Part shown: positions 2,218 through 32,750 of the stretch, one piece after another
Numbering within the stretch: position 1 is the stretch's first letter
Layout of the letters: every line of letters starts with the position of its first letter
NCBI GenBank assembly: GCA_043814055.1
Contig: JBDRKL010000011.1
Coordinates: 1 to 32,750 of the forward strand
Source of the DNA: an archaeon
GTDB taxonomy: Archaea > Undinarchaeota > Undinarchaeia > Undinarchaeales > JBDRKL01
Length of the DNA: 32,750 bases
Direction of reading: 5' to 3'
Made by a program: the position numbers and the translations under genes
Notes under the pieces: model-generated
Told to the model about the DNA's origin: nothing
Seen by the model: only the letters and a program-made list of their open reading frames with translations
Databases searched by the model: none

Positions 2218-2679
2218 ATGCAAGTGAACAATTTGGTTTTAGACACCAGCGTGCTAATGACGCAGGGCAAGGAATCGCATCGCGACGTGTTTGAAGAGCT
2301 CCAGAAGCTTAGGGGCAGCTACACCGCGCTAGTGCCTAGCTTCGTGATTGATGAATTGGACGGGCTTGCAACTGTAAAACCAGGTCAAAAGCGCGGAGAA
2401 GTTCAAAGAGCAGCGCGCACAGCGCTTGCTATTTTGGATGAATACGCGGTTCACACTGAAGTTGGGAAAACAACAGGGGATTCACCAATTTACAAAGTGG
2501 AAATTATTAAATCCGTCAAGGGTGCAAAAACTGTTGATGTTGCGCTCGTTGAGTTCGCGCAGAAATTCAACGCGGAGATTTGCACAGTGGACAAGGGTTT
2601 GAAAGCGAGCGCGGAGTCCCTTGGTTTGCACGTTCTTTACCTGGGGCAGTATCCTAAAAAAACGCGTCACTGTGAATAA
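2218..2679 (+). CDS. PIN-domain ribonuclease (archaeal Fcf1/Utp24-like)
   Basis: VLDTSVL, VPSFVIDEL, VD..L, TVDKGL acidic PIN motifs; PIN genes commonly follow eif2g in archaea. Confidence 0.85.
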   Translation: MQVNNLVLDTSVLMTQGKESHRDVFEELQKLRGSYTALVPSFVIDELDGLATVKPGQKRGEVQRAARTALAILDEYAVHTEVGKTTGDSPIYKVEIIKSVKGAKTVDVALVEFAQKFNAEICTVDKGLKASAESLGLHVLYLGQYPKKTRHCE

Positions 2680-4100
2680 TTCGGCGCCTCGCCTGTAATC
2701 GTTATGTCATGCGGATGGCTCTCCCGCAATCCGCCTGAAGTTATCTTGATGAACTTGCTCTTCTTTTTCATTTCATTAATGTTCTTTGCGCCGCAGTAGC
2801 CCATTGAGCTCCTCAATCCACCGATGAGCTGGTAAACATTCTCAGAAACTGTGCCGCGGTACGGAACAATTCCCTCAACGCCTTCAGCAACCAGCTTGCC
2901 CGCGGTCTTTACATTGCCCTGCGCATACCTTTCCTTTGAGCCCTGCATCATTGCGCCGATTGACCCCATTCCGCGGTACCTCTTATACTTCCTTCCGCCC
3001 ATTATGACCTCATCTCCTGGAGCTTCATCAGTTCCGCCAAACATGCTTCCTGCCATTACGCAGGATGCGCCCGCAGCAATCGCCTTTGCAATATCCCCTG
3101 AGTATCTTACCCCGCCGTCTGAAATAACTGGGACATCTCCTGCTCCTTCAACTGCATCCAGTATTGCAGTAACTTGCGGAACTCCAACACCTGCAATAAT
3201 TCTGGTTGTGCATATTGAACCAGGGCCAACTCCGACTTTCACAGCGTCCGCGCCAGCAGAAACCAAATCCTTCGCTGCGTCCGCAGTTGCGATGTTTCCT
3301 GCAATAACTGGAAAATCAAATTCTTTCTTTATTGCTTTCACGCCCTCAATAACATTGCTTGAGTGGCCGTGCGCAGTATCAATAACAAGAATGTCAACAC
3401 CTGCGTCAATAAGTGCCTTCGCCCGCTCAGTATCATTGGGTCCAATCGCAGCTCCAACCCTAAGCCTCGCCTCTGAGTCCTTGCACGCGTTCGGGTATTT
3501 CCTTCCCTTTTCAATATCAGTAACAGTAATTAACCCGAGCAGCTTGCCGTTTTCAACAATCGGCAGCTTCTCAATCCTGTTGTCATCAAGCACTTTTCGC
3601 GCCTTTTCCTGCGTGATATTCTTGTCTGCGATTATTAGGTCCTTGGTCATGATATCCTTTATCCTGATTTTTGGGTCATCCTTGAATCTCAAGTCCCTAT
3701 TCGTGACTATGCCAACGAGTTTGCCTCCCAAAATAATCGGGAAGCAGGATATGCCGCGTTCCTCTTGAATCTGAAGCGCTTTTTCAATCGTGTCCTCTGG
3801 CGAAAGCGTGATTGGGTCGCGGACTATGTAGCTCTCAGACTTCTTAACCCTTCTAACCTCATTCACCTGGGCCTCAATGCTAAAGTTCTTGTGAATAATT
3901 CCAAGGCCACCTTCCCGTGCCAAAGCGATAGCAAGCTTAGACTCGGTTACAGTATCCATCGCAGAACTCATAAGTGGGATGTTCAATTCTATATCTTTTG
4001 TAAGCCGTGTCTTCAGCTCAACCTCGTTCGGGAGAACATCAGACTTGGACGGCACTAAAAGTACGTCATCAAAACTAAGGCCAGTTTTTATTGTTTCCAT
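2667..4100 (-). CDS. guaB: IMP dehydrogenase with CBS pair
   Basis: [26 protein letters not shown], catalytic [23 protein letters not shown]. Confidence 0.98.
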
Positions 4101-4216
4101 ATCTTTCTATATACCAAGGTATATAAATGGATTTCGCTGGGCTCAACCTAACGTTTATATACCCATTTGCATTATTAAAACTTACTTCTAAGAATACTTT
4201 CGGGAGGAGATGGCAT

Positions 4217-6193
4217 ATGTTTGATATTACAACAATAAGCGTTGCTTGCAGCGTGTTAGCCCTCATATTCGCGGGCTACTTGGCAGTTAAGGTAAAGCGT
4301 GAGAGCCCAGGCACTCCAAAAATGCAGGAGCTCTCCACGATAATACACGACGGCGCAATTGCGTTCCTAAATAAGGAGTATCAGCCGCTCGTGGTTTTCA
4401 TATTAATTTTCGCTGGAGTAATATATTATTTCATAAATCCAATAATGGCTCTTGCGCTTCTCATAGGCGCTTTCAGCTCAGCGCTCGCCGGCAATATTGG
4501 AATGCGCATCGCGACAAGCGCGAACGCGCGCACTGCGAACGCGGCAAAGAAATCAATACGCGACGGGCTCATGGTGGCATTCTCAAGCGGCGCAGTCATG
4601 GGCTTGTGCGTGGTCGGCCTCGGACTCCTCGGAGTTACCGGGCTTTACATGTACTACGGCGACACCACAATTCTCTTTGGCTTCGGTTGCGGGGCAAGCG
4701 CAATCGCGCTCTTCGCAAGAGTCGGCGGCGGCATCTACACGAAATCAGCTGATGTCGGTGCGGATCTCGTGGGTAAAGTTGAAGCTGGAATCCCAGAGGA
4801 CGATCCAAGAAACCCTGCGGTAATCGCGGACAATGTTGGCGACAATGTTGGCGACGTAGCAGGAATGGGTGCAGACCTCTTTGAAAGTTATGTTGACTCA
4901 ATAATAGCTGCAATGGCGCTTGGTGCAATTGGTGCAGTGGCTGGCGCAGCAGTTACCCCGCTTCTCATAACACTTCCGCTCCTCCTAGCCGCAGTCGGCA
5001 TAATTTCCTCAATACTCGGCACATTAATTGTTCTTAATTTAAAAGGCAAAAACCCTGCAAAACTTTTGAACAATGGAATATTTGCAAGCGCGGGGATAAT
5101 GCTGGTTCTCTCCGGCACATTAATTTGGTTCCTTATGGGTTCATTAAATATTTTCTTCGCGCTCCTCGCCGGGCTCGCGGCTGGAATCATAATCGGCCTT
5201 TCAACTGAATACTACACGTCAGATCACTATGCTCCAACTCAGGGAATTGCGAAAGCCGCGAAGATGGGCTCTGCAACTGTGATAATTGAAGGACTTTCAG
5301 TTGGCATGATAAGCACAATCATCCCGGTTTTCGCAGTCAGCGCGGCGATACTCACGGCTTTCCACTTTGCAGGCCTCTACGGAATCGCAATCGCCGCGGT
5401 CGGCATGCTCTCAACTCTCGGCATAACTCTTGCAACAGACGCTTACGGCCCTGTTGCTGACAACGCAGCAGGAATCGCAGAGATGGCAAAGATGGGTCCT
5501 GCAGTGAGGAAGCGCGCAGAAGCTTTGGACGCAGTAGGCAACACAACCGCTGCAATCGGCAAGGGCTTTGCAATTGGCTCAGCAGCTCTAACCGCGCTCG
5601 CCCTATTCGCAACTTACTCAAGCGTGGTCGGGCTTGAAGCAATAAACCTGATAAATCCAGTCGTTGTTGTCGGTTTGTTCATCGGCGCATTCATGCCTTA
5701 TCTCTTCTCAGCTTTCGCAATGAACGCAGTAGGAAAAGCAGCGATGGAAATGGTTGAGGAAGTGCGCAGGCAATTCAAGCAAATCAAGGGCCTGATGGAG
5801 GGCAAGGCGCAGCCGGACTACAAGCGCTGCATCAACATCAGCACGTCCGCCGCGCTTAAGCAGATGATTTTGCCGAGCATTTTGGCTATAATTTCACCTA
5901 TCTTAGTGGGTGTTGTTTTGGGGCCAGAAGCGCTCGGCGGCATGCTCGCTGGGGTGACTGCTTCCGGTTTCCTAATGGCTGTTATGATGGCTAATTCAGG
6001 CGGCGCATGGGACAATGCAAAGAAATATATAGAGAGCGGGAAACTTGGTGGTAAGGGTTCGGACGCGCATAAGCAGGCAGTAGTGGGAGACACTGTTGGC
6101 GACCCGTTCAAGGACACAGCTGGTCCGTCCCTAAACATATTAATAAAGCTTATGTCCATAATAGCACTGGTATTTGTGCCATTATTCCTATAA
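4217..6193 (+). CDS. hppA: Membrane-bound K+-dependent pyrophosphatase (probably Na+-translocating)
   Basis: [35 protein letters not shown] (Ala form is K+-dependent), [14 protein letters not shown]. Start placed at ATG 4217 after GGGAGGAG (4202-4209). Confidence 0.96.
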
Positions 6194-11921: not shown

Positions 11922-12321
11922 CGTAGTGCAACAAATATGCAGTTCTCAAACTTGACCAAAGGCATTGGGCTTGCTCGGTAGCACTGTAGCCTCATCTATT
12001 TCATGCAGCGCAGCGCCCCTCCGCCGCTTGGCGGAGGTGTAGTGCAATTTTTCATCAAATAACAAGCTTTATATAGCACTCTTGCCCATTTTCCAATTAC
12101 TTCCAGGCAGTAAAACATTGTAGTGCAAAAACTCCGCGGCCAGGCGGAGTTGTAGTGCAACGGGCCCCAAAATGGTATACAAGAAATACGTAACTAGAGA
12201 CGGAAAGAGGCATGGTCCTTATTATTATACTACAGTGCGAGACAAGGAGGGGAAGGTAAAAACTGTTTATTTGGGCTCTGACTTATCAAAAATCAAGAAG
12301 CAGCAAGCCAATGTAGTGCAA
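11922..12321 (+). repeat. Five direct GTAGTGCAA motifs, two preceded by a CTCCGC-N6-GCGGAG hairpin
   Basis: GTAGTGCAA at 11923, 12039, 12120, 12152 and 12313; hairpins at 12018-12037 and 12130-12151. Confidence 0.92.
12068..12075 (+). promoter_or_regulatory. Probable TATA box of the giant surface-protein gene
   Basis: TTTATATA preceded by purine-rich AAATAACAAG, about 100 nt upstream of ATG 12172. Confidence 0.55.
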
Positions 12322-15300
12322 CGAAATCAACGTTCAAAAACTCCAAAATCTACCAGCCCGCAGCTGAAATATATGGCAATCCCAGTTGCTGTCCTGTTCA
12401 TTTTCGCAATTCTTGTTTTCTCGCTCTCTTTATCCGAGCCAACAGCGTTTGACTCGCTTATGCCTGGAAAGCTCATAAGCGGTTTTACAACTTTCGGTGA
12501 GGAGGGTTTTGACCCTGAAACTCCTATTATGGACAGCGGAACCATCTTGCCAGTGGAAGCGAATGAGACAGAATCACATCCTCCTGCGCCAGAAACTCCT
12601 CCAGCATCAATACCCAAAACCTCAGGGGACGCGGATAGCATTACTGCCCTAATAGATGATTTGCTTGCACTACCTGAACAGGAAGTTCCTGCTGAGGAAT
12701 TAGCACCCGAAGCTCCGGCTGAAGAACCAGTCGGACCATCGCTAATGATGACTGCAGAAGAGTCAGCATACTTGCCACCGCTCCCAGCTGGAATTGACGA
12801 GGTGCCGCCGAACGGCTCAGACCCGTATTACATAAACGAAAATACAATTCTAAGACACGACACATACAATATAAATGTTACATCACTTCCCACAGCTCAG
12901 GCTGCGCTCTGGATAAACGCCTCTGACATCTATCTTGACTGCAACGGCTCAACAATAATGGGCAACGGTACTGGCTATGGTGTATATATAAACAGTTCGT
13001 TTTCAAACGTTGTAATCCGGAATTGCATATTATACAATTACAGCTATGGCATATTCGCAGAATCAAATAACTATCACCTTATAGCCAACAATACAGTTGA
13101 CTCAAATGCGAATCAGGGCATTTATCTTTACAATTCAAACTACAGTAATGTTACCAACTGCACAGCTATAAATAATTCTGAGCGTAGCCTGCAGTTCACT
13201 TACAGTTATTTTGCAAATGCAACCAATATCAATTTAACAACCATCTACTCCGCTCAGCAATTATATTTTGAAGGGAGTCACAACTGTTCAGTTTTCAACG
13301 CAACTGTGACTGGAGGCACTGACGTAATATTTTTGTCTGGCAGTACAAACAACACTTTTTCCAACATAACTACAAGTGGTGGCAACTACGGCTTCTATCT
13401 GGTTGGTTCAAGCAACAATACAATAAAAAATAGTTACATTCTTAATCAGGGTGACTATGGAATATATGTTATGGATTCTAATTCTATGGACAATCTTTTC
13501 TACAATAATTATCTTGCAAGCAATGCTGCTGGTGCTTGGGACGCCGGTACAAATGATTGGAACACTTCTGAGCAGACTGGTCCTAACATAATCGGCGGTG
13601 ATGATATCGGTGGTAATTATTATGACAATTACACTGGCTATGATTTGGATGGTGATGGTATAGGGGATACCCTTGATTATCCAATACCAGAATTTGGTTT
13701 AAACATAGATTACCTCCCACTAACCAACAATGTTACGCCCTGTGTGAATTTGACAAACGGTACAAGTCCTTATTATGTGAACGAGAGCACAACGCTCTGC
13801 GAAGGCCAGAGCGTGAATATAAATGTTTCAAATAATCAGGGTGCGCTCTGGTTCAACGCCTCAAATATATATCTTGACTGCAACGGCTCTACAATATTCG
13901 GAAACAACTCCTCTGCAGGGTTCGGCGTCTGGATTAATCAAAGCTTTGAAAACATCACAGTAAAGAATTGCGTGCTGCTCTATTATGACTTTGGCATAAT
14001 CGCCCAGTCAAATCACCATAATATTACGAACAATACAGTTATGGACAGTCCCAGTTATGGCATGTACCTTGAAAATAGCAACATAAGCAACATCACAAAC
14101 AACACCCTAATTAGAAGTGGTATGTATGGATTTTATATAACTTCAAGCAGTAGCACCAATGTTATAGAGGGTAACAATATCAGCAACAACACGCTTGATG
14201 GTATTCATATTAATGGAGATTCCGATTGGAATAATTTAACTAAAAATTTGATTTCGTATAATGGCAATGATGGCATTTACGTCTCACAGTGGTTTTATAC
14301 TGCCTCACAGAGCTTTTATACTACAATAAGTAACAATACAGTGAGTTTCAATTCTCTGACTGGAATCTATCTAGGTCAAGTCTCCGATCCAACGAGCCTA
14401 TCTTTTCTGGTTGTCCGAAACAATACCGTGATAAATAACTCGCAGTACGGTATCTTCCTGGATTATATTGTCCAAACCACTCTGGCGAACAACACAATTC
14501 AGGAAAACGCAGTAGCGGATTTGGCTATAAACGCAAATTCTGATGCTATTTGCAAGCACCTCGTGGAGAACAATACGGGCTCTAGTGGCGGGCAAATCTG
14601 GTTCAATAACACTTCTGTAAACATCCAAAATGTTGAGCTATCTGAGCTTATACTCTGCAATGCGGATTATTCAACTGTGACTAATGTGAATGTCAGCGGT
14701 TCTGATACGCTTTACAACAATTACATATTTACTGCAAGAGCCGCGAGCCTCGCGTTTTCTAATGTAAATTCTTCCTATAATTATCATGGAATCTTCTCTA
14801 GCTCTGGGAATTCCAACAATCTCAGCAATCTTACATTGTTAAATAACAGCAATATCGGGCTTTACATAACTGGCAACTCATTCATTGTGAACAACAGTAA
14901 TATTAGCGGCAACACGATTAATGGACTTTACATAAACAATAGCAAAACTGGCAATTTGATTTACAACAATTACCTCGCCAACACAAACAACACCTGGGAT
15001 GACGGCACAAATGATTGGAACACTTCTGAGCAGACTGGTCCGAACATAATCGGCGGGGTGGACATCGGCGGCAATTACTACAGCAATTATACTGGAACTG
15101 ATAGCGATGGTGATGGTATAGGAGATACTTTGGATTACTACATACCTGGTGGTTCAAACATAGATTACCTGCCGCTAACTAACAATGTTATCCCCTGTGT
15201 GAATTTGATAAACGGCACAACTCCATACTACGTGAATTCAAACACAACGCTCTGCGAAGGCCAGAGTGTAAATATAAATGCTTCAGGGGGTGAGAGTGCT

Positions 15301-18300
15301 TTGTGGATAAACGCTTCAGATATCTACCTTGACTGCAATGGTTCAGTCATATTTGGTGATAATGCGAGTGCTCCAAATGCTGCGAGTGGTATTTACGTGA
15401 ATGGTTCATTTTCTAATATTACGATAAGGAATTGTGTTGTGCATAGCTATTCTTCGGGTGTGTATCTTAACATGACTGAGGATAATACTTTGCAGAATAA
15501 TACTGTGTATTATGCTTATGCTGGTTTTAGGTTGATAGCTGCGAACAGGAGTAATCTCACGAATAATAACGCTACGCTCAACCAATTGGGTTTCTACCTC
15601 TCGGGCAGCAGCTCAAACAACACGCTTTCAAACAACAACGCAAACTTTAACAATGTTGCGCCGAGCGGCTGGGGCTTCTTTGTGGGGTCAGGTAGTAATG
15701 AGAATAACCTAACTAATAATAACGCCAGCTCAAATTTGATCACTGGCTTTTACATATACTCAAATAACAACAATGTCCTTAACAACAACGCCAGCTCAAA
15801 CACCAATTACGGAGTGCAGCTTCTAGCCGTTCAGGGTAACAATATTTCGGATAATACACTTCAAGAAAACGCTATCTATGACCTAGTGTTATCTATAAAT
15901 ATCCCAACTCACTGCCAGAACTACATTTCAGGGAACACTGGTTCCGGTGGCCGCCCGATATGGTTCAACAACACTTCAATAACTGTGCAAGATGTAGAGC
16001 TCTCAGAACTCATACTCTGCAATGCGGATAACTCCATACTCCTCAATGTCAATATATCAGGCTCAGCAACTTTGAACAACAACAACATAGATGCGTCGTT
16101 TGTGGATAATTCTAATTTTACGAATGTAAATTCATCTGGCAACTATCGCGGAATAGAAATGTATCATAGTACGTTCAATAATATATCTGGGGGTAATTTC
16201 TCCAACAATTTGTGGGGCATCTACCTCTGGAATACAAATAACACTACAGTCTTTAACAATAATGTGAGCGACAATACCCAGGCTGGGATAAAGCTTTCCA
16301 ACGAGGCCACTGACAATACAATCTACAATAATTATTTCAACAACACTAAAAATACATATGATTCCGGCACAAATGATTGGAACACTACGCAGCAGACTGG
16401 TCCGAACATAATCGGCGGGGTGGACATCGGCGGAAACTTCTACAGCAATTACACTGGAACTGATGATGATGGCGATGGTATAGGTGACATTCTGGATTAC
16501 TACATACCTGGTGGTTCAAACATAGATTACCTGCCGATAACTAATGAGATCACTTCCTGCGTAAATCTTACGAACGGCACAACTCCATACTACGTGAATT
16601 CAAACACAACGCTCTGCGCTGGCCAGAGCGTGAATACAAATGTTTCAAATGGCGAAGGCGCTTTTACAATAAGTGCAAATTCAATCTATCTCGACTGCAA
16701 TGGTTCAACAATATTCGGAAACGGTTCAGGCAATGGAATCTTGTTAAGTGGCGTTTACACCGAGGTTATAATCCGAAACTGCATACTACACGACTACAAC
16801 TACAGTGCTTACATCTCAGCAAGCAGTTCAAACAGCTTCTACAACAACACGTTTTATAACAGCACTCTGGACAATGTTTACATAGAGGGCCTATCCGGCT
16901 CAAACAATTTCACGAACAACACGCTTCATTCCGGAGGCCAGCGCGGAATTATGCTGAGCTCCGTGATGGACGGCAACATGTTCTATGATAACTTGATTTA
17001 CAACCACACTTCCACTGGCATAGTCATTGGTTCAGGCACAGACAATAACATTGTCTCCGGCAATAATGTGAGTGAAAACAGCGGCAATGGAATTCAGGTT
17101 CAGGGCAGTAGCAATACGATAGGCAACAATTACGTGGCTTCAAACAGCATTCACGGCTTTAACATTTCATCTCCTGGCTCCTATAATATACTCTCAAATA
17201 ACACGGCATTCAACAATTCCCAGGTTGGTTTCTACATTAGCTCCTCAAATTTCAACAATCTGACCAACAATACAATCTACAATAACTTGGATTATGGAAT
17301 CTATGTTGAGTCTGCAAATACCATAAATATCTCCAACTGCACATTCTGGAATAACACGGATGATACCTATACTTACGCCACGGAAGGCGAGACCTGGTTC
17401 CAGTCATCTACAAGCATAACTTTCTGGAACAACACTGTGATTGACACTCACAATACAGGCGTTTATTACAATTCAAGCAACGATTCAATAGTGGCGTTCA
17501 ACACGTTTTCGTCAAATGATGGAACTCCTAGCGCTATTTCAGCCCGCGAAACTGACAATGTAACTATCCACAATAACACGTTTGTCAATTTCACAGGCGG
17601 CGGCGTGTATAACATAGTCACCCAGATTTCAACAAACATCAACGTGTCCCAGAACAACTTCTCAAGCTCCCGCTGGGCAGTTGACTACAGGCAAACCAAT
17701 GACAGCTATATTGAAAACAACTTATTCTACACAAATTCTCTTGTGGGCATAATGGTCAGAAACGCAGCAAACAATATCACAATCCGCTACAACACGTTCT
17801 ATGACAACCTTACCAATTTTGGAATAGTCCTGATTAATACCACCAACAATGATGTCTATAACAACACACTTGAAACCAACAATGGACTTGACATATACGA
17901 CGAAGCCCACGGCAACTTAATCCACGACAACATGGTGAAGTTCAGCAGCTACGGGTTCTGGTTTGAGCTCACTGATGCATCCTATACCAACCAGAACAAT
18001 ACAATTTACAACAACACGTTCTACGATGGTATCTCATGCTTCTACGCCGACCTGCTCCGCGGCTCGGGCAACATATTTGAGAACAACACGCTCACAAACT
18101 GCAGCTACGCGGTGCGCGCGAACAACATGACAAATGGAAGTGCTGTTCGCATCAGATGGAACAATATCACGCAAACAAACATCTCAGTGTTCTATGCGCA
18201 GGCTGGCTCAGAATTGATAGTATACGACATGAATATTGATAGCTCTAATAACATGTCAGCAATATCCCAGACCGCCAGCACAATCCATCTGGTAAATATG

Positions 18301-19437
18301 ACACTCAACCGGTCTACAACTAACATAACTGACACCTCAAACATAACAGCTAAGTGGTATAGCGTTGTCAGGGTTTATGATGCAGACAGTAGCGCCAATC
18401 TGAGCGCAAGCGTGACCTCAACCGCAAGCGACAGCAGTATTGAGTGGACTGCCACGTCCGCAAGCGCGACAGGCAGGACAACTAATTCCTGGCCATATAA
18501 TCTAGATACTGAATATGTTGAATACCAGCCAGGCAACCTTTCAAACATATCAAACATATCCACGCACGTATTCTCTGCCTCTGCAACCGGCTACACAGCC
18601 GGCACAACAACAAATTCAACGCTTTCAAATGAAATCGCCACTTATGACATAGCATTGTCAGTAACGCCCAACGGAACTTCTCCTCCTAGTGGCGGTGGCG
18701 GAGGTAGCTCAAGTGTATTTGTCCCACTTCCGCGGCTCAAGATAGAGCCGAGCAATATTGAGAACGGCAAATTCACGGTTTATGTTGAAAACATCGGTAA
18801 TGTTGACCTTGAGGGGATAAAGCTCAAGCTCAGCGACTTGCCTTCCAGAGTGCAGGCAAAGTTCAGCCCGAATTTGCTTGACCTAAAGGTTGGTGAAGGT
18901 GATGAATTTGAGGTCATGCTGGACGGCACTGAGAACTTGCCTGGCGGCTCTTATGACATAAATGTCCGCGTAAACGACATTGAGAACCAGGCCAGTGCAA
19001 CCGCAATGGTTACATTCGCAATTGAGGGTATGCAAAAACCGAAGAAGCCGGTTGAAATCCCGCCTATACTGATGAATATAATTAAAAAGCTCTTTGACCC
19101 GCGCATACTCGTCCTTGCAGCCATAATAACCTCATTGATAGTGCTCTTCATGGCATACCCAGTTGAAAAACTCAATCTGCCAAAGGCAATACGTAAGATA
19201 TTCAAGTTCCGGCTTGTTAAGAAAAAGATACCAGTGCCTATCGGAACTGTTCTTGACTCTGAAAAGATGCGCCTTGCCAGATACATAAGCTATGAGGTAA
19301 AGGGTGGCAAGAAAGTTCCTGAAATCCTGGAATCACTTGAAACCGACGGCTGGAAGAAAAAGGACCTTGACACAGTGGTCGGCTACCTTGAGGAGAACGA
19401 CTTTGAGCTAGAGGAAGTAGGCAAGAAAAAGAAGTAA
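12172..19437 (+). CDS. 2421-aa membrane-anchored surface protein: basic GPYYY N-terminal domain, TM, four NosD/CASH-like beta-helix modules, TM, C-terminal tail
   Basis: Repeated LDCNGS, GIYL..S.NN.I.NN, GPNIIGG.DIGGNYY and D.DGDGIGD motifs; many N-x-S/T sequons; SGGGGGSS linker; hydrophobic segments near both termini. Confidence 0.92.
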   Translation: MVYKKYVTRDGKRHGPYYYTTVRDKEGKVKTVYLGSDLSKIKKQQANVVQRNQRSKTPKSTSPQLKYMAIPVAVLFIFAILVFSLSLSEPTAFDSLMPGKLISGFTTFGEEGFDPETPIMDSGTILPVEANETESHPPAPETPPASIPKTSGDADSITALIDDLLALPEQEVPAEELAPEAPAEEPVGPSLMMTAEESAYLPPLPAGIDEVPPNGSDPYYINENTILRHDTYNINVTSLPTAQAALWINASDIYLDCNGSTIMGNGTGYGVYINSSFSNVVIRNCILYNYSYGIFAESNNYHLIANNTVDSNANQGIYLYNSNYSNVTNCTAINNSERSLQFTYSYFANATNINLTTIYSAQQLYFEGSHNCSVFNATVTGGTDVIFLSGSTNNTFSNITTSGGNYGFYLVGSSNNTIKNSYILNQGDYGIYVMDSNSMDNLFYNNYLASNAAGAWDAGTNDWNTSEQTGPNIIGGDDIGGNYYDNYTGYDLDGDGIGDTLDYPIPEFGLNIDYLPLTNNVTPCVNLTNGTSPYYVNESTTLCEGQSVNINVSNNQGALWFNASNIYLDCNGSTIFGNNSSAGFGVWINQSFENITVKNCVLLYYDFGIIAQSNHHNITNNTVMDSPSYGMYLENSNISNITNNTLIRSGMYGFYITSSSSTNVIEGNNISNNTLDGIHINGDSDWNNLTKNLISYNGNDGIYVSQWFYTASQSFYTTISNNTVSFNSLTGIYLGQVSDPTSLSFLVVRNNTVINNSQYGIFLDYIVQTTLANNTIQENAVADLAINANSDAICKHLVENNTGSSGGQIWFNNTSVNIQNVELSELILCNADYSTVTNVNVSGSDTLYNNYIFTARAASLAFSNVNSSYNYHGIFSSSGNSNNLSNLTLLNNSNIGLYITGNSFIVNNSNISGNTINGLYINNSKTGNLIYNNYLANTNNTWDDGTNDWNTSEQTGPNIIGGVDIGGNYYSNYTGTDSDGDGIGDTLDYYIPGGSNIDYLPLTNNVIPCVNLINGTTPYYVNSNTTLCEGQSVNINASGGESALWINASDIYLDCNGSVIFGDNASAPNAASGIYVNGSFSNITIRNCVVHSYSSGVYLNMTEDNTLQNNTVYYAYAGFRLIAANRSNLTNNNATLNQLGFYLSGSSSNNTLSNNNANFNNVAPSGWGFFVGSGSNENNLTNNNASSNLITGFYIYSNNNNVLNNNASSNTNYGVQLLAVQGNNISDNTLQENAIYDLVLSINIPTHCQNYISGNTGSGGRPIWFNNTSITVQDVELSELILCNADNSILLNVNISGSATLNNNNIDASFVDNSNFTNVNSSGNYRGIEMYHSTFNNISGGNFSNNLWGIYLWNTNNTTVFNNNVSDNTQAGIKLSNEATDNTIYNNYFNNTKNTYDSGTNDWNTTQQTGPNIIGGVDIGGNFYSNYTGTDDDGDGIGDILDYYIPGGSNIDYLPITNEITSCVNLTNGTTPYYVNSNTTLCAGQSVNTNVSNGEGAFTISANSIYLDCNGSTIFGNGSGNGILLSGVYTEVIIRNCILHDYNYSAYISASSSNSFYNNTFYNSTLDNVYIEGLSGSNNFTNNTLHSGGQRGIMLSSVMDGNMFYDNLIYNHTSTGIVIGSGTDNNIVSGNNVSENSGNGIQVQGSSNTIGNNYVASNSIHGFNISSPGSYNILSNNTAFNNSQVGFYISSSNFNNLTNNTIYNNLDYGIYVESANTINISNCTFWNNTDDTYTYATEGETWFQSSTSITFWNNTVIDTHNTGVYYNSSNDSIVAFNTFSSNDGTPSAISARETDNVTIHNNTFVNFTGGGVYNIVTQISTNINVSQNNFSSSRWAVDYRQTNDSYIENNLFYTNSLVGIMVRNAANNITIRYNTFYDNLTNFGIVLINTTNNDVYNNTLETNNGLDIYDEAHGNLIHDNMVKFSSYGFWFELTDASYTNQNNTIYNNTFYDGISCFYADLLRGSGNIFENNTLTNCSYAVRANNMTNGSAVRIRWNNITQTNISVFYAQAGSELIVYDMNIDSSNNMSAISQTASTIHLVNMTLNRSTTNITDTSNITAKWYSVVRVYDADSSANLSASVTSTASDSSIEWTATSASATGRTTNSWPYNLDTEYVEYQPGNLSNISNISTHVFSASATGYTAGTTTNSTLSNEIATYDIALSVTPNGTSPPSGGGGGSSSVFVPLPRLKIEPSNIENGKFTVYVENIGNVDLEGIKLKLSDLPSRVQAKFSPNLLDLKVGEGDEFEVMLDGTENLPGGSYDINVRVNDIENQASATAMVTFAIEGMQKPKKPVEIPPILMNIIKKLFDPRILVLAAIITSLIVLFMAYPVEKLNLPKAIRKIFKFRLVKKKIPVPIGTVLDSEKMRLARYISYEVKGGKKVPEILESLETDGWKKKDLDTVVGYLEENDFELEEVGKKKK
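13551..16710 (+). repeat. Three highly similar ~340-bp intragenic inter-module repeats
   Basis: AAATGATTGGAACACT...CAGACTGGTCC.AACATAATCGGCGG begins at 13551, 15009 and 16371; similarity runs through to GACTGCAA(C/T)GG. Confidence 0.9.
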
Positions 19438-24614: not shown

Positions 24615-25217
24615 ATGGCAAAGATATCTATGCAGGGCAATAAACAGCAGAAGATATACGACAAATTTTACATCGTAAAGAACACGTTATTCAAGTTTCT
24701 GTTCAAACCACTCACAAAAATGGGAGTTACTCCCAATATGGTTTCTATGCTCTCTCTTTTATTCGGGGCTGTTGCTGCTGTCTTTTTGATGTACGATATG
24801 TTCATTGCTTTTTTCCTCCTCATGGTCAGCTACGTCATAGATGGCTTGGATGGCAGTCTTGCTCGCTATCAGAAGAAGGATTCTATTTTTGGGATCTTCG
24901 TTGACGCTGTAGTAGATCTTTTCATAAACCTCTTCGTGGTTATGGTTCTAGTCCATATGGGTCTGCTCATGGGCTCTCTGGGTGTGATGTATATGTTCCT
25001 GTACGCACTGATTTATGTTACATCTTACATGCGCAGTTTCTTTAACAAAACAAGCAACTGGACTGTTCTTCCACGGTTTTACTTCTATTTCATGATTCTG
25101 TTCTATGTGCTTGGTATCGCTAACCTCTTTGACTTCGCAGCTCTAGTGTTCTCACTGCTTATGGTGGTTATGGTCGTGCGCGACACTATAGTTCTGAGGG
25201 GTTGTTTAGACAAATGA
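24615..25217 (+). CDS. CDP-alcohol phosphatidyltransferase family protein
   Basis: GVTPN, DGLDGSLAR...G.FVD.VVD signature; multiple TMs. Confidence 0.92.
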   Translation: MAKISMQGNKQQKIYDKFYIVKNTLFKFLFKPLTKMGVTPNMVSMLSLLFGAVAAVFLMYDMFIAFFLLMVSYVIDGLDGSLARYQKKDSIFGIFVDAVVDLFINLFVVMVLVHMGLLMGSLGVMYMFLYALIYVTSYMRSFFNKTSNWTVLPRFYFYFMILFYVLGIANLFDFAALVFSLLMVVMVVRDTIVLRGCLDK

Positions 25218-25597
25218 TTATGGATATGCATATTCATCCACAGTATTCCCATTCCTCTTTTGGCGGTTCTTCTGTTTCAAAACCGAGTGACATAGTCGAC
25301 TTTGCCATAAAAAGAGGTTTTGGCGGAATTGCGATTACTGACCACGATTCGATAAAGGGCGCACTTGCTGCCCTTTACGTGTTCCTATACCTTGGGGATA
25401 GTGTGTTGGTATGCTTGAGAAACTCTCGGAATAAACCAATTATGTACTCATTCAGGCCAAGATTGTTTGTATACCTTGCATTTTTTCTTTATTCCCTGTT
25501 TAACATAAATTTCATAGAGCCATTAATGCTGATTTTAACCATTATTCTTGTGCTCTCTTTCACCAAAAACTATGTGATTGTACAGCGGGTGATTTAA
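25214..25597 (+). pseudogene. Chimeric ORF: PHP N-terminus fused to a CDP-alcohol phosphatidyltransferase-like C-terminus
   Basis: DMHIH...GIAITDHDSIKGA switches abruptly at about 25360 to hydrophobic LAALYVFLY...RPRLFVY, resembling the C-terminal half of 24615-25217. Confidence 0.75.
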
Positions 25598-25598
25598 A

Positions 25599-26255
25599 AT
25601 GCAGGCTGACCTTCACGTGCATTCAAGTCATTCTATAAATAAAATTTGGGGCTCTGCGTGTGAGTCCGACCCAGAAGCAATCATAAAAGAATGCATTAAA
25701 AAAAATATAGGCGCAGTAGCCATAACAGACCATGATTCTGTGCAGGGTTTAACGTCTGGAAAAAAGAGCGCAAAAAAACACGGCATACTATTTATTCCAG
25801 GCATTGAGGTGTCAACAAATAATGGGCATATGCTTGCATATGGAGTTGAGGAGCTCATACCACATAACAGGACGGCAGAGGAAACCATAGACCTTATTCA
25901 TGGCGCAGGCGGGATAGCAGTAGCATCCCACCCATTCAACAGCATGTACGCCCTCAAGTCAAAAATATACTCACTCAAACTTGATGGCATAGAGGTGTTC
26001 AACAGCCGCTGTGGTGGAAATGCAAAGTCTCTAAAAGCTGCAGAAGAGCTTGGGCTTGGCATGACTGCTGGAAGTGATGCTCACTCACTCAAGGAAATCG
26101 GAAATTCACTAACCATATTCAACAAAAACATTGACTCAGTAGACTCTGCCCTAAATGCAATTAAAAAAGGAAAAACCTCATGGAAAGGCGCGTCAACCCC
26201 CTACTCAGATATCTTTAGAGCCTCTTTTAATCTGCTCCTTTCAAAGTTCAGGTAG
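25599..26255 (+). CDS. PHP-domain metal-dependent phosphoesterase
   Basis: DLHVHS, AITDHD, GIEVST..GH, SHPF, IEVFN, GSDAH. Confidence 0.93.
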   Translation: MQADLHVHSSHSINKIWGSACESDPEAIIKECIKKNIGAVAITDHDSVQGLTSGKKSAKKHGILFIPGIEVSTNNGHMLAYGVEELIPHNRTAEETIDLIHGAGGIAVASHPFNSMYALKSKIYSLKLDGIEVFNSRCGGNAKSLKAAEELGLGMTAGSDAHSLKEIGNSLTIFNKNIDSVDSALNAIKKGKTSWKGASTPYSDIFRASFNLLLSKFR

Positions 26256-29469: not shown

Positions 29470-30282
29470 ATGAACCTCCGCACCGCAATCCTCCTAACAG
29501 ACGAAAATGCCCTGCTCAAGGTGCACGGCGACACGCTCCTGGAGATTTCATTCTACAAATTGCGCGAGGTTTTTGACAAGATTTTCGTAATCACCAGTTC
29601 GCCAGAGGCGCAGGCAAAGTATTCAAAAATCATAATGGAAGATGTGCTCTGCGATTACTCAGAACGAAGCCACCCGATTACGCAGTTCTTCACAGGTTTG
29701 AAAGCCTGCCAGTGCGACAAGGTTTTCCTTGCAGCGTCCAATATGCCTTTCCTTAACCCAAAAGCAATCAAGCTGATGGGGTCACAGGAGTGGAACCGCG
29801 CGATAGTCCCGCGTTACGTGAACGGCGCCCTGGAGCCCACGCACGCCTTCTACAAGGTCAAGCCTACCCTTCAGGCTGTGGCTGGCGCGATAAATGACGA
29901 GCGCTACTCTTTTGAAGCTGCGTTGCTCAATATGGACAAGGTAAATTATCTTCCTGTGGGCGAGCTGATGAAAGTGGATCCTCAGCTTCTAACGTTTTTC
30001 AAAGTGCGCTCAGCGGTTGATTTTGACACTGCAAAGGCAAAGCTGAACCAGAAAGTTTACAAGGGTCGGCTCGCGAAAGCGCAAACACTTAAATCCTCAG
30101 TGCAAATAGAGTGCCAGAGCGAAACCGCGGTTTACTACAAGGTCCCTGGAACTGAAGAGGAGCACGAAGTGCGGTTTGACAAGCGCAAGAACTCGTGGAC
30201 CTGCGACTGCACGTACTTCGCGATGAAAGGAAGCTACTGCTCGCACATAATCGCAGCCAAGGAGGCACAGGATGATATCTGA
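29470..30282 (+). CDS. MobA-like nucleotidyltransferase-fold protein fused to a SWIM zinc finger
   Basis: FLAASNMPFL, AIVP....LEP.HAFY (MobA-like); C-terminal WTCDC-x8-CSH (SWIM). Confidence 0.85.
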   Translation: MNLRTAILLTDENALLKVHGDTLLEISFYKLREVFDKIFVITSSPEAQAKYSKIIMEDVLCDYSERSHPITQFFTGLKACQCDKVFLAASNMPFLNPKAIKLMGSQEWNRAIVPRYVNGALEPTHAFYKVKPTLQAVAGAINDERYSFEAALLNMDKVNYLPVGELMKVDPQLLTFFKVRSAVDFDTAKAKLNQKVYKGRLAKAQTLKSSVQIECQSETAVYYKVPGTEEEHEVRFDKRKNSWTCDCTYFAMKGSYCSHIIAAKEAQDDI

Positions 30283-31732
30283 TTTCACACTTGCAAAAGA
30301 AGCCCTTGCGGAATTCAAGAAGCCGCAGGGCAATTTCATAAAGGATACAGGGCTCAAAAACCTGATTCCAGAGCGCTTAATCGCAGTAGGGGATGAAACA
30401 AACCTCAAACTCGCCCAAGTTGGAATCACTCCTGCGCTCGCGATTTTTGACTACAAGATAAAACGCGGAGAAATTTCCAAAGAAGTTCAGGAAAAGCTCG
30501 GCGAGCCAGACCTGCGCGTGAAAAATCCAGCTGGGGTAATCTCGCTTGGAGCCTGGAACGCGATAAAGCAGGCTCTTAGCACGCAAAGCTCAAGAATTTT
30601 AGTTGATGGGGAAGAGGATTTGCTCGCAATTGCTACTTATTTCCTTGCGCCAAGCGGATTCAAAATACTCTACGGCCAGCCGAACAAGGGCCTGATCTGC
30701 TGGGAAGTGTCTGACAAAAAGAAGCAGGAATACGCTGAGCTCTTAATAGCAACAAGCGCCCGTGAATTCATTTCAAAACTCAAGGGCAAAACCGTTGTTC
30801 TGCACCACGACGATCCGGATGGCTGCACAAGCGCGGTATTAATGCTCAAAAAAGTCAAGGCAGTTCCCATCGTAACCAATGATGTCACAATCCACGCGAA
30901 CCTGCGCCGAGAAATTGAAAAAGAAAATGCCAAAAACCTGATAATTGTGGACTTGGGTGGTGAAGCCCGCAGTGATATAGTGGAAATGTCCCAGAAAATG
31001 AACGTAATGGTCGTGGACCACCACCAAGTCTGGGGCGATGCTCCGTTCGGAAACGCACTCTTGCTCAACCCGCACCTCTTTGAAGTCCCAGACACGCACA
31101 TCGCACCAGCATCATACCTCTGCTACAAGATAACCCAGGACAATGACTGGATCGCAGCAATAGGTGTAATAGGCGACAAAGGCCAGCCGCAATGCGCTGA
31201 TTTCCTTAAAAAAACCAAGTCACATTACAAAGTTGACTTTGATGAACTCACAGAGCTCGCTTCTGCAGCTGACGTGGTTGGTGAGTCAGATTCCCTGGTT
31301 CAAATCCTGCTCAAAGCTAATGGTCCAGGCGACCTTTTAAAATCCAAAGAGCTCGTTGAATATGGAAAAACAGTTGCTTCAGAGCTCAACTTGCTCCTTG
31401 CCGCGCACAAAAAAGAGGCAAAACTCCTCGCAGGAGGCAAACTGCTTGTTTACGAAATGAAATCCGAGCTTGAGATGCGCGGCGCAGTGGCTAATCAGCT
31501 CCAAACTCATTACCCAGACAAGGTAATAATAATTGCAGAAGCCGAGGATGATGAATTCTCAATGAGCTTGCGCACAATGCGCGATGATTTTGACCTTGTT
31601 CCTGCGATAAAAGCTTCAATTGCAGGTCTTAAGAGTGCTCAAGGCGGTGGGCACGCGCACGCGTCAGGGGCAAAAGTGCTCTTGAAAGACAAGGAAACGT
31701 TTTTGCAGAGATTTGCAGAGCAAATCAAGTGA
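30272..31732 (+). CDS. Fusion of GTP-dependent dephospho-CoA kinase (DUF359) and DHH/DHHA1 phosphoesterase
   Basis: AVGD, D.KIKR, NPAG.I, VDGEEDLL, LYGQPNKG (DUF359), then HDDPDG, VDLG, VDHH, SLR, GGGH..ASG (DHH). Confidence 0.9.
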   Translation: MISDFTLAKEALAEFKKPQGNFIKDTGLKNLIPERLIAVGDETNLKLAQVGITPALAIFDYKIKRGEISKEVQEKLGEPDLRVKNPAGVISLGAWNAIKQALSTQSSRILVDGEEDLLAIATYFLAPSGFKILYGQPNKGLICWEVSDKKKQEYAELLIATSAREFISKLKGKTVVLHHDDPDGCTSAVLMLKKVKAVPIVTNDVTIHANLRREIEKENAKNLIIVDLGGEARSDIVEMSQKMNVMVVDHHQVWGDAPFGNALLLNPHLFEVPDTHIAPASYLCYKITQDNDWIAAIGVIGDKGQPQCADFLKKTKSHYKVDFDELTELASAADVVGESDSLVQILLKANGPGDLLKSKELVEYGKTVASELNLLLAAHKKEAKLLAGGKLLVYEMKSELEMRGAVANQLQTHYPDKVIIIAEAEDDEFSMSLRTMRDDFDLVPAIKASIAGLKSAQGGGHAHASGAKVLLKDKETFLQRFAEQIK

Positions 31733-31765
31733 CTGTAGAGCAGTAGAAACATATAAATAATCTTT

Positions 31766-31834
31766 TTACACTACATTTTTAACTGTTGAAAAGACCTTTG
31801 CTATTTTTTAGGTCTTAAAAATCTTTACACTACA
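31766..31834 (-). repeat. Two TGTAGTGTAA motifs (minus strand) flanking a 7-bp inverted repeat
   Basis: TTACACTACA at 31766-31775 and 31825-31834; AAGACCT (31791-31797) / AGGTCTT (31810-31816). Confidence 0.8.
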
Positions 31835-31853
31835 CGTTAAACAAGGAATCAAA

Positions 31854-32750
31854 ATGGTTTACAAGCGATATGTCTACATAAACGGCAAAAAATATGGTCC
31901 CTACTACTACAAAAGTGTTAGGGGCAAAAATGGAAAAGTTAATGCAGTGTATGTTGGCAACGCGTCCTCACCTAAAGTTGTTGCAAAAGTGAGGCAGGAT
32001 TACCATCTAGGCATATCAATTCCTTCTTTAATCTTTATGCTGGCTTTCTGCGTGCTATCCATGTCATTAGTTTTAAACTCCGGCGGTGCTCTTGCCGGAT
32101 ATACAACTATTATGGGTGGTGAAACCGGGTATGAATCAGTTGTTGAGCCAGAACCTCAACCCGGACCTAAGTTCAGCGAGGAAATAGCAAAAGAAGTCGG
32201 AGATTTGCTCGCTCTGCCTGAAGCACCGGCTCCTGAGCCTCCAGCAGCCTCACTCTCTGAAGAGCTTGTTCAGCTTCCTGCCACAGTGGGCCAGCCCGTC
32301 CGCTGGGTTAGGACAGTCCAGCTTGACTCTGGCGCAACCAGCGCAGCGGTTGAAGTGCCGAATGAGGCAACAGTTGTGGCAGTGCGAAAAGTTGAAGGCG
32401 AAATAAAAACAGACATCTCATCAGATAAGGTTCAGCTTCCTGCGCCTGGAATGCTTGCCGCAAGCGCTGAGCCAGGGAATAAAGTAATCACGGTTCAGGA
32501 ATCTGCGGATTTGATTGAGGTTGAGTATGAGACTCCTGCGCCGCAGATGTCTGAAGAAACAGTTTCTGACAGCAAAAAGCGTGTTACAATTTATTCAGAT
32601 TTTCATTACACTAACATTTCGGCCTTTGTGAATATTCCTGAGAGTCCGCAGGGTTTGATAACTCTATATCATATTAATTCCAGCGCAAGAACTCCAGCTC
32701 AAATTTCAAATTACATTGACTCTAATCAGGATGGTCTCATTGACCGTATT
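31854..32750 (+). CDS. Second GPYYY-domain membrane-anchored surface protein (3' end outside window; absent from the ORF track)
   Basis: Manual translation gives 299 stop-free codons: MVYKRYVYINGKKYGPYYYKSVRGKNGKVNAVYVG, TM LGISIPSLIFMLAFCVLSMSLVL, Pro/Glu linker with DLLALPE, then ...GQPVRW...EYETPAP...DSNQDGLIDRI. Confidence 0.92.
   Translation, partial: MVYKRYVYINGKKYGPYYYKSVRGKNGKVNAVYVGNASSPKVVAKVRQDYHLGISIPSLIFMLAFCVLSMSLVLNSGGALAGYTTIMGGETGYESVVEPEPQPGPKFSEEIAKEVGDLLALPEAPAPEPPAASLSEELVQLPATVGQPVRWVRTVQLDSGATSAAVEVPNEATVVAVRKVEGEIKTDISSDKVQLPAPGMLAASAEPGNKVITVQESADLIEVEYETPAPQMSEETVSDSKKRVTIYSDFHYTNISAFVNIPESPQGLITLYHINSSARTPAQISNYIDSNQDGLIDRI

Follow-up and report, generated by a model that had tools for sequence, protein, structure and literature searches.

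We analysed a 32,750-nucleotide (nt) stretch of DNA from an undinarchaeal genome (contig JBDRKL010000011.1 of assembly GCA_043814055.1, positions 1 to 32,750), referred to here in its entirety as the window. At its right-hand end, an earlier note made from the letters alone had proposed a second gene with a GPYYY-type N-terminal head, preceded by a TATA element and by copies of a 10-bp motif, which we call the box. Here we describe this gene (W2), its paralogue in the same window (W1), the protein family to which both belong, and the box at their promoters. The features at W2 are as follows.

31734..31743, plus strand: weak reversed box TGTAGAGCAG, which mirrors box copy 1 about the TATA octamer at 7 nt on each side; at chance level when taken alone
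31751..31758, plus strand: TATA-like octamer ATATAAAT, read from sequence and placed 7 nt ahead of box copy 1
31766..31775, plus strand: box copy 1, TTACACTACA, within a 19-nt repeat (D1) that is 84% identical to copy 2
31791..31816, no strand: 7-bp inverted repeat with a 12-nt loop, arms AAGACCT (31791-31797) and AGGTCTT (31810-31816), at chance level
31815..31822, plus strand: second A/T octamer TTAAAAAT, placed 2 nt ahead of box copy 2
31825..31834, plus strand: box copy 2, TTACACTACA, 19 nt before the ATG
31854..32750, plus strand: W2, the 5' part of a gene whose product is a membrane-anchored surface protein with a head, judged from an open reading frame (ORF) open at its 3' end and from homologues of its ectodomain
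31854..31961, plus strand: segment coding for the GPYYY head, amino acids 1-36, with a net charge of +8, eight tyrosines and a predicted three-stranded antiparallel β-sheet
32019..32075, plus strand: segment coding for the hydrophobic helix, amino acids 56-74, with a Kyte-Doolittle window mean of 2.43

The reading frame that the earlier note had drawn from position 31854 to the end of the window runs exactly as described. It starts with ATG at 31854, remains open for 299 codons up to 32750, and appeared only when open-ended ORFs were listed. A 121-nt spacer separates it from the stop codon, at 31732, of a gene encoding a DUF359-DHH/DHHA1 protein. The protein database holds a single copy of the W2 protein, from a contig ending at 32750, and the gene is therefore cut by the end of the contig. 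W2 is a genuine gene, truncated by the contig end.

The W2 protein consists of a 36-residue basic, tyrosine-rich head, a 20-residue linker, a transmembrane (TM) helix, and an ectodomain. Its head is 51% identical to that of W1 across the first 45 amino acids, which bears out the description of W2 as a second GPYYY-headed gene, and the similarity reaches through the hydrophobic helix to approximately residue 142 (BLASTP, E 5e-16). The ectodomain (residues 90-299) has homologues in two database proteins, P0152 (E 7e-14) and P0153 (E 9e-13). The latter, of 1287 amino acids, likewise opens with a head and a helix and has blocks around EYETPAP and SDFHYTNI in common with W2. Charges are distributed unevenly around the W2 helix: 11 Lys and Arg residues against one Asp or Glu precede it, and the next 25 residues contain no Lys or Arg against three acidic residues. 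The W1 helix is flanked by the same asymmetry. Because of this asymmetry, the positive-inside rule predicts that the W2 head is cytoplasmic, and W2 should be a type-II (N-in) surface protein. By eye, an ALA|GY-type site follows the W2 helix, at which head and helix might be cleaved off.

The TATA-like octamer and the two boxes at W2 lie where they had been reported. A further repeat, D4 (AATAATCTTT/AAAAATCTTT), precedes both boxes, and the second octamer together with box copy 2 is possibly a second promoter unit. Allowing one mismatch, TTACACTACA has nine matches in the window compared with 1.31 expected, a number reached by none of 100 shuffles; for TGTAGTGCAA there are nine matches compared with 2.84 expected (1 of 100 shuffles). 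The exact core CACTACA occurs eight times compared with 2.77 expected (0 of 100 shuffles), and six of these eight copies fall at 12038-12318 or 31769-31834. We found no box at the other promoters of the 29 ORFs scanned in the window; the box clusters solely at the two head genes and does not behave as a generic promoter element there.

Other parts of the proposed layout fared less well. The inverted repeat between the two boxes is present, but the leader that contains it folds no better than shuffled sequence (z -0.13, with 81 of 200 shuffles folding equally well). Moreover, no conserved hairpin was seen by eye between the paired boxes of L023 or L034, two of the related loci that we numbered from L001 onward and inspected with 3-kb flanks each. 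The weak third box at 31734 also exists, at a level that chance would produce: two-mismatch matches number 35 in the window compared with 35.3 expected. Because of its mirror position, and because reversed boxes akin to TGTAGAGCAG abut TATA in L022, L025, and L028 (by eye), it remains a possibility only.

The paralogue W1 has the following features.

12018-12037 and 12130-12151: GC-rich hairpins
12038..12160, minus strand: promoter region with three exact boxes, a TATA element and the GC-rich hairpins
12038-12047, 12119-12128 and 12151-12160, minus strand: exact boxes, reading TTGCACTACA on that strand
12067-12074: TATA element TTTATATA, lying between the box units
12172..19437, plus strand: W1, 2421 amino acids, with a head, a TM helix (residues 69-87) and NosD/right-handed β-helix repeats, from the ORF and Pfam
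12312..12321, minus strand: fourth exact box, an intragenic copy covering codons 47-50, where the linker that follows the head is encoded; oriented like the W1 boxes upstream

The W1 boxes are reversed relative to those of W2 and of most relatives. A 29-nt unit, made of an 8-bp GC-rich hairpin and a directly adjoining box, occurs at 12018-12047 and again at 12130-12160; the two units are 86% identical, with stems kept and loops that differ. Folding yielded a z of -2.87 for 11990-12065 and of -1.44 for the leader at 12098-12180. The hairpin at 12018-12037 is thus more stable than its shuffles (z -2.87), and together with the T-run that follows, it may be the terminator of the upstream transaldolase gene. 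The W2 arrangement had been said to mirror positions 12119-12172. The order of motif, hairpin, motif, and ATG is indeed the same in both genes. However, the boxes point in opposite directions, their spacing is 59 nt in W2 and 32 nt in W1, and the stems are unrelated (7 bp and AT-rich in W2, 8 bp and GC-rich in W1).

To place both genes in a wider context, a two-sequence profile of the head was searched against 1.84 billion representative sequences (E≤1e-3). This search returned 846 clusters, and the match begins within the first nine residues in 145 of the 150 matches listed. The relatives came from this exhaustive HMMER search; a word-index search with the 45-residue head had recovered the window's own protein only, among two candidates. 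Family members range from 43 to 4246 amino acids. We examined 114 head proteins of at least 150 residues, three of them sequences from the window itself. In 111, a 19-residue window among the first 250 residues is hydrophobic, and in 55 the hydrophobic helix starts at residues 40-49. The remaining three contain no such stretch; they appear soluble and have a coiled-coil or Lys-rich tail. Extracellular Pfam families (Beta_helix/NosD, Laminin_G_3, Ig-like, Peptidase_S8, FG-GAP, DUF11) were found on 20 of 25 long head proteins and on none of the other five.

Six positions are invariant in 35 aligned heads: Gly-15, Pro-16, Tyr-17, Tyr-18, Tyr-19, and Arg-23. The first 36 residues have a median net charge of +8 (151 sequences), and an AlphaFold2 model of the head shows a three-stranded antiparallel sheet (strands 2-9, 12-23, and 29-35) with a mean predicted local distance difference test score of 80.6. 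W2 has every feature of this family: a head at residue 1, the invariant G-P-Y-Y-Y with an arginine four residues on, a Lys/Arg-rich linker, and a hydrophobic helix. Against Pfam and NCBIfam, the heads stayed below the threshold of every family, and a comparison with Protein Data Bank (PDB) structures gave no Foldseek match at E≤0.001. The sole PDB sequence match, a GPYYY-containing complementarity-determining region 3 of a nanobody (E 0.53), was dismissed as chance. The papers searched on the head motif, DUF6788/DUF1678, and surface or giant proteins of DPANN archaea (named for Diapherotrites, Parvarchaeota, Aenigmarchaeota, Nanoarchaeota, and Nanohaloarchaeota) yielded no description of the head module or of the box. 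As delimited by this profile, the head defines a large, unnamed family of predicted DPANN-type archaeal surface proteins.

A genome scan with the head returned 49 loci: 38 of archaeal type, 10 of bacterial DUF6788 type, and one spurious 10-residue match. The archaeal-type loci are labelled Woesearchaeota, Pacearchaeota, Nanoarchaeota, Aenigmatarchaeota, Undinarchaeota, or Parvarchaeum, and some are "Methanosarcinales" bins. Apparent start codons of head genes include TTG (L001-L014, L023, and L038), GTG (L019, L026, and L029), and ATA (L013), each located a few nucleotides after a strong GGTGG-type ribosome site.

We then asked how often the box occurs at these loci, using the pattern derived from the window, TT[AG]CACTACA, and a widened pattern, TT[AG][CT][AT]CTAC[AG]. 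Exact matches to the former number 14 within 300 nt upstream of a head gene, in 11 of the 38 archaeal loci, compared with five elsewhere in about 173 kb. The widened pattern has 30 matches in 11,141 upstream bases, where 0.39 were expected and the maximum in 200 shuffles was three; outside the interval from -300 to +400, it has 10 in 158,385 bases compared with 3.9 ± 2.2 expected. Unbiased scans led to the same element. Among 6-mers, CACTAC and ACTACA rank top (12 of 35 loci compared with 1.2 expected), above Shine-Dalgarno and TATA words, and among 8-mers at up to one mismatch, every leading word is a variant of the box; GTAGTGTA, for instance, occurs in 21 of 37 loci compared with 5.1 expected. 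The 6-mer and 8-mer counts, and the residue-22 counts given below, leave out L002 (a near-duplicate of L001) and L006 (41 nt of upstream sequence only), and L010 was dropped; all three loci were kept in the two pattern scans. These data confirm that the box is a real element linked to a gene family, and that head genes in other genomes carry it as well.

The position of the box relative to TATA follows two main arrangements, with box-TATA spacings in the relatives read by eye. As in W2, where octamers precede the boxes by 7 and 2 nt, TATA-like octamers precede boxes in relatives. In gene orientation and 2-7 nt after an A/T octamer, the box occurs at both copies of W2 and in about nine other loci (L013, L023, L024, L027, and L031-L034 among them). 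Where two boxes are present, they are spaced by 59 (W2), 64 (L023), or 53 nt (L034). In the clade formed by L003-L014 and L038, a clear B recognition element (BRE)/TATA has two or three boxes about 24 nt downstream, arranged in tandem at a period of 10-12 nt and often with an inverted half-site in front of them. Nine aligned upstream regions, with a mean column identity of 44%, have as their conserved blocks BRE/TATA, the tandem boxes, the Shine-Dalgarno sequence, and an A-rich GAGGTG. Four of these loci carry an additional box, 26 nt ahead of the start codon.

Reversed or palindromic boxes were also found, namely the reversed boxes of W1, a copy at -347 in L008, and inverted pairs in L005 and L011. 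The occurrence of both orientations and of palindromes argues for recognition as double-stranded DNA rather than as RNA. Copies within coding regions lie at +140 (W1), +148 (L006 and L008), and +124 (L013), in the orientation of each gene's upstream boxes. They sit in the linker 12-16 codons after the head, where the encoded peptides differ (NVVQ, VALR, and VVLQ); an in-coding box could be an auxiliary operator for looping, or in part reflect a conserved peptide.

Several neighbouring observations concern the same upstream regions. In L019, L026, and L030, whose heads have Lys or Glu at position 22, another inverted pair (of the TGTAAGAGAAC / GTTCTCTTACA type) brackets TATA and may be a further box variant. 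The long leaders of L001, L003-L014, and L038 (approximately -200 to -30) contain one to three conserved A-rich, Shine-Dalgarno-like GAGGTG blocks together with small hairpins, far ahead of the real start; upstream ORFs, decoy sites for ribosomes, or additional promoters may explain them. In L021, an exact TTACACTACA, at -653 from the head gene, stands 6 nt ahead of the ATG of a gene for an NYN-domain protein (PF01936, E 7.8e-23, at approximately 2348-2909). The product of this gene begins with MAYKR like a head and then diverges, so that the gene looks to have taken over its 5' end from a head gene. Finally, we rejected codon mimicry, in which the box would copy or pair with the codons of the YYY motif (W1 has TTATACTACA at +53), because the codon usage of GPYYYxx in 37 genes ignores the box variant.

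With moderate confidence, we favour the interpretation that the box is a conserved 10-bp double-stranded operator at head-gene promoters, with an approximate consensus of TT[AG][CT][AT]CTACA, bound by a putative sequence-specific regulator. The usual binding sites of archaeal repressors lie downstream of TATA or across the start site. Similarly, the putative DNA-binding protein would occupy the box right after TATA or over the start site and would control initiation; judged from box position, its likeliest mode would be repression by blocking polymerase recruitment. Such control would co-regulate the head-bearing surface-protein genes. What the data show is the gene, the head family with its architecture, the statistical standing of the box, its tie to this family, and its placement relative to TATA-like sequences; we infer the operator role, the direction of regulation, and the transcription starts. 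A separate soluble factor would be the first choice as the binder, and the head itself a minority candidate.

The nearly constant placement of the box in W2 and its counterparts, in gene orientation and 2-7 nt after the octamer, would also suit a core-promoter element, read by the basal machinery (for example by a TFB or TBP paralogue) and defining a class of surface-protein promoters. For promoter-class-specific TFB paralogues, a precedent is reported (bioRxiv 10.64898/2026.09.06.749720). Nevertheless, boxes are also found reversed and upstream of TATA (W1, L022, L025, and L028), as tandem copies at the presumed start 24 nt after TATA in the L003-L014/L038 clade, and within coding regions between +124 and +148. 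An operator fits this flexible placement better than a core element does, and we regard the core-promoter interpretation as quite improbable.

In the L003-L014/L038 clade and in W1, the spacing from TATA suggests that the boxes would be transcribed, and the two boxes of the W1 leader flank a GC stem that they can extend. The box might then act, hairpins included, in the 5' leader of the mRNA, on structure, stability, localisation, or translation. We consider this the least probable of the interpretations. Since the W1 orientation differs from the rest, the RNAs would carry complementary sequences, and copy 1 in W2, L013, and L023-L034 lies between TATA and the expected start, where it would not be transcribed. 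The folding values given above (z -0.13 for W2 and -1.44 for the W1 leader) argue in the same direction, and the window has no Rfam match.

The repeats themselves raise the question of recombination. In mycoplasma vsa/vsp systems, modules are exchanged or inverted among surface-protein genes. Direct repeats bracket the promoter and head in W1, L006/L008, L013, and L024/L031 (one box upstream, another at +124 to +249), the W1 boxes are inverted relative to those of W2, and the NYN gene of L021 starts with MAYKR right after a box. Accordingly, the box might be a site for exchange or inversion of a promoter-head module, or just a leftover from duplication of a passively co-inherited 5' cassette. 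However, none of the 29 window ORFs matches a recombinase or integrase family, both window genes have a promoter and a head of their own, and no silent cassettes were seen. We further reason that an inversion between the boxes of W1 and those of W2 would separate each gene from its promoter; with no recombinase in the window and such an unproductive geometry, an inversion system (shufflon) was rejected. Passive inheritance is at odds with a 10-mer kept in diverged intergenic DNA across phylum-level distances, which needs selection. Taken together, recombination or a passive cassette appears very improbable.

Some of our data weigh against the operator interpretation. The widened pattern was shaped on the same upstream regions in which it was counted, so its enrichment is partly circular; this does not apply to the window-derived pattern or to the k-mer scans. 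No TTNNNCTACA box is present in 14 of 37 upstream regions, although some of these show other variants (by eye). Many of the box-positive loci belong to one clade (L001-L014 and L038), which leaves about 6-7 independent lineages and not 20. No transcription-factor gene is conserved beside the head genes in the 3-kb flanks inspected. Finally, the variable position of the box and its orientation in W1 are unusual for a single simple operator.

The GPYYY head, predicted to be cytoplasmic, might itself bind the box, either tethered to the membrane in the manner of ToxR and CadC or released by signal-peptide processing, so that each gene would carry its own autoregulator, and promoter, operator, head, and TM helix would travel as one module. 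We regard this as unlikely. In its favour, the head is very basic and is predicted to form a three-stranded sheet, the link between box and head holds across distant lineages and varied ectodomains, and three of the 114 head proteins look soluble.

Further indications come from the bacterial DUF6788 proteins, to which head residues 12-42 are 52-55% identical. Sub-threshold DUF6788 matches, at profile positions 43-80, were obtained for 18 of 35 heads at E≤0.1, with a best E of 0.0016. The gathering cut-off of this family (PF20586, 27.2 bits) was reached by none of the 35 heads, and the W2 head scored 12.3 (E 0.2) and the W1 head 20.5 (E 5.4e-4). DUF1678 (PF07913), with a cut-off of 25 bits, gave 12.5 and 14.5 bits and matched 9 of 35 heads at E≤0.1. 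The archaeal head and DUF6788 have a core β-hairpin, HGPYYY...GK...(Y)LG, in common. In the bacterial ORFs, this core is preceded by CGKxSCxCH and followed by about 50 further residues, whereas the archaeal heads begin at Met-1 with MVYKKY, contain no cysteine and no helical tail, and comprise 36 amino acids placed at residue 1 and followed by a TM helix. We take the head to be a remote, shortened relative of DUF6788, a family of which the literature searched contained no mention.

In two of the bacterial loci, DUF6788 has the setting of a mobile element. L043 and L045 (both at 2678-4877) come from a single genome and carry copies, 99.5% identical to each other, of a 2.2-kb bacterial insertion sequence. 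This element has terminal inverted repeats of about 17 bp, an upstream DUF6788 ORF (135 amino acids, 82.3 bits), and an overlapping ORF for a DDE transposase (DDE_Tnp_1, 513 amino acids). Where an insertion sequence has two ORFs, its end-binding domain is usually encoded by the first. Related copies occur two to three times in other deltaproteobacterial metagenome-assembled genomes (L039, L041, and L042). Structure searches of the Atlas gave leads, below significance, to the N-termini of IS1634 transposases and to the Int_N domain of tyrosine recombinases. The best-looking PDB match by Foldseek was a DNA-binding protein, UBP, with 35% identity over 40 columns, but this match is not significant (E about 1.1, probability 0.4-0.5, template-modelling score 0.43-0.48). 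UBP of Sulfolobus is a soluble, ucm-binding nucleoid-associated protein of 111 amino acids (PDB entries 9EFD-9EFF), small and basic, that reads a specific double-stranded motif of about 11 bp through β-hairpins in the major groove (PMC12141716).

Residues of the head also vary together with the box. Under the strict TTNNNCTACA pattern, Val or Ile at position 22 accompanies A at base 5 in 12 of 12 loci, and Tyr accompanies T in eight of eight; no TTNNNCTACA box was present in 7 of 15 Tyr-type and 1 of 15 Val/Ile-type loci. This covariation coincides with the main phylogenetic split of the heads, and shared ancestry explains it equally well. A related suggestion of the earlier note, that the C/T difference between the W2 and W1 motifs (G/A at box base 3 on the gene strand) may track residues of the head and give a paralogue-specific recognition code, is conjectural, DNA binding by the heads being itself putative. 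Lys-5 or Arg-5 follows G or A at this base among Val-22-type heads (four versus two lineages), but the correspondence fails among Tyr-22-type heads and was dropped.

Other data speak against the head as the binder. All its Pfam matches are below gathering score, and structure searches gave no Foldseek match at E≤0.001 and no meaningful PDB sequence match. Where the helix begins at residues 40-49, as in 55 of 114 proteins, it follows the head closely, which would press the head against the membrane, and tethers of just 5-10 residues are frequent. A head that is always N-terminal and followed by a TM helix, whatever the ectodomain, has the hallmark of a signal for sorting or anchoring, and the headless NYN gene of L021 also has a box 6 nt before its ATG. 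In the full version of this proposal, the head would be a domesticated transposase-type, DUF6788-like β-sheet module joined to the cytoplasmic end of DPANN surface proteins, and would bind the box in its own promoter, tethered or released from the signal-anchor on export. Every adhesin or enzyme gene would thereby possess an autoregulator coupled to export, with residue 22 (Val/Ile versus Tyr) reading base 5 (A versus T), and promoter, operator, head, and anchor would spread as a portable module. So specified, it seems to us somewhat less likely still.

Elsewhere in the window, ORFs encode archaeal eIF2-γ, RpoE/Rpb7, S24e, S27ae, SRP54, a split transketolase, and others. The gene directly before W2 (30272-31732) fuses DUF359 to DHH/DHHA1 phosphoesterase domains, and the gene preceding it fuses an NTP_transf_3 domain to a SWIM zinc finger. 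Two neighbouring PHP-domain ORFs on the same strand, 25202-25597 (131 amino acids) and 25599-26255 (218 amino acids, with PHP_C), are separated by only a stop codon. They may represent a pair of paralogues, or a single gene that was split or interrupted.

DPANN archaea rely on contact with the cells of their hosts, and large surface proteins are prime candidates for mediating it. To our knowledge, almost nothing is known about how the genes of these proteins are controlled or the proteins targeted. Our results reveal a compact N-terminal module that tags hundreds of DPANN surface proteins, and a 10-bp promoter box that tags head genes in several DPANN lineages and forms a candidate pairing with this module. 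What makes the system interesting above all is how tightly a promoter box and an N-terminal protein module are coupled across lineages. Should the box prove to be an operator, it would offer a first handle on a surface-proteome regulon in uncultivated archaea, together with a simple sequence rule for finding its members. If instead the head is the binder, the locus would represent a regulatory cassette of a new, self-contained kind, and archaea would have domesticated a transposase domain.

Two classes of known proteins resemble the head proteins in their architecture. ToxR, CadC, and TcpP are bacterial membrane-tethered one-component regulators, and like them the head proteins are predicted to have a small cytoplasmic N-terminal domain, a single TM helix, and a large outside part, and their genes have a repeated short box at their own promoter. 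Unlike ToxR and CadC, the head is not a winged helix, the outside part resembles adhesins or enzymes and not a sensor, the tether often measures just 5-10 residues, and DNA binding is putative; neither Trans_reg_C nor another DNA-binding Pfam family was found on the W1 or W2 protein. The second class comprises the extended or specialised signal peptides of large surface proteins, namely the ESPR of autotransporters, YSIRK, and KxYKxGKxW (which we take to be PF13018, PF04650, and TIGR03715, respectively). Here, the likeness is a conserved basic, aromatic-rich N-terminal extension before a hydrophobic region, on very large and diverse surface proteins. These signals differ from the head, which is archaeal and predicted to be a folded 36-residue β-sheet, and we know of no signal of the ESPR, YSIRK, or KxYKxGKxW type that comes with a promoter box. 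The heads gave no ESPR, YSIRK, or KxYKxGKxW match in Pfam (E≤10) or NCBIfam (E≤1). By the tests run, the predicted architecture resembles membrane-tethered regulators and, equally, extended signal peptides, and the head proteins are members of neither class.

With regard to the DNA, the closest parallels are in archaea, where repressors such as MDR1, Phr, and those of the TrmB family have promoter-proximal sites. Like those operators, the box is a short site, sometimes palindromic or in tandem; it lies after TATA-like sequences or over the presumed start, and we know of no named operator that its sequence matches. Unlike the sites of MDR1, Phr, and the TrmB family, the box is tied to one family of protein architecture across several DPANN lineages. 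In this comparison, it looks like a previously undescribed control element that is specific to a gene family.

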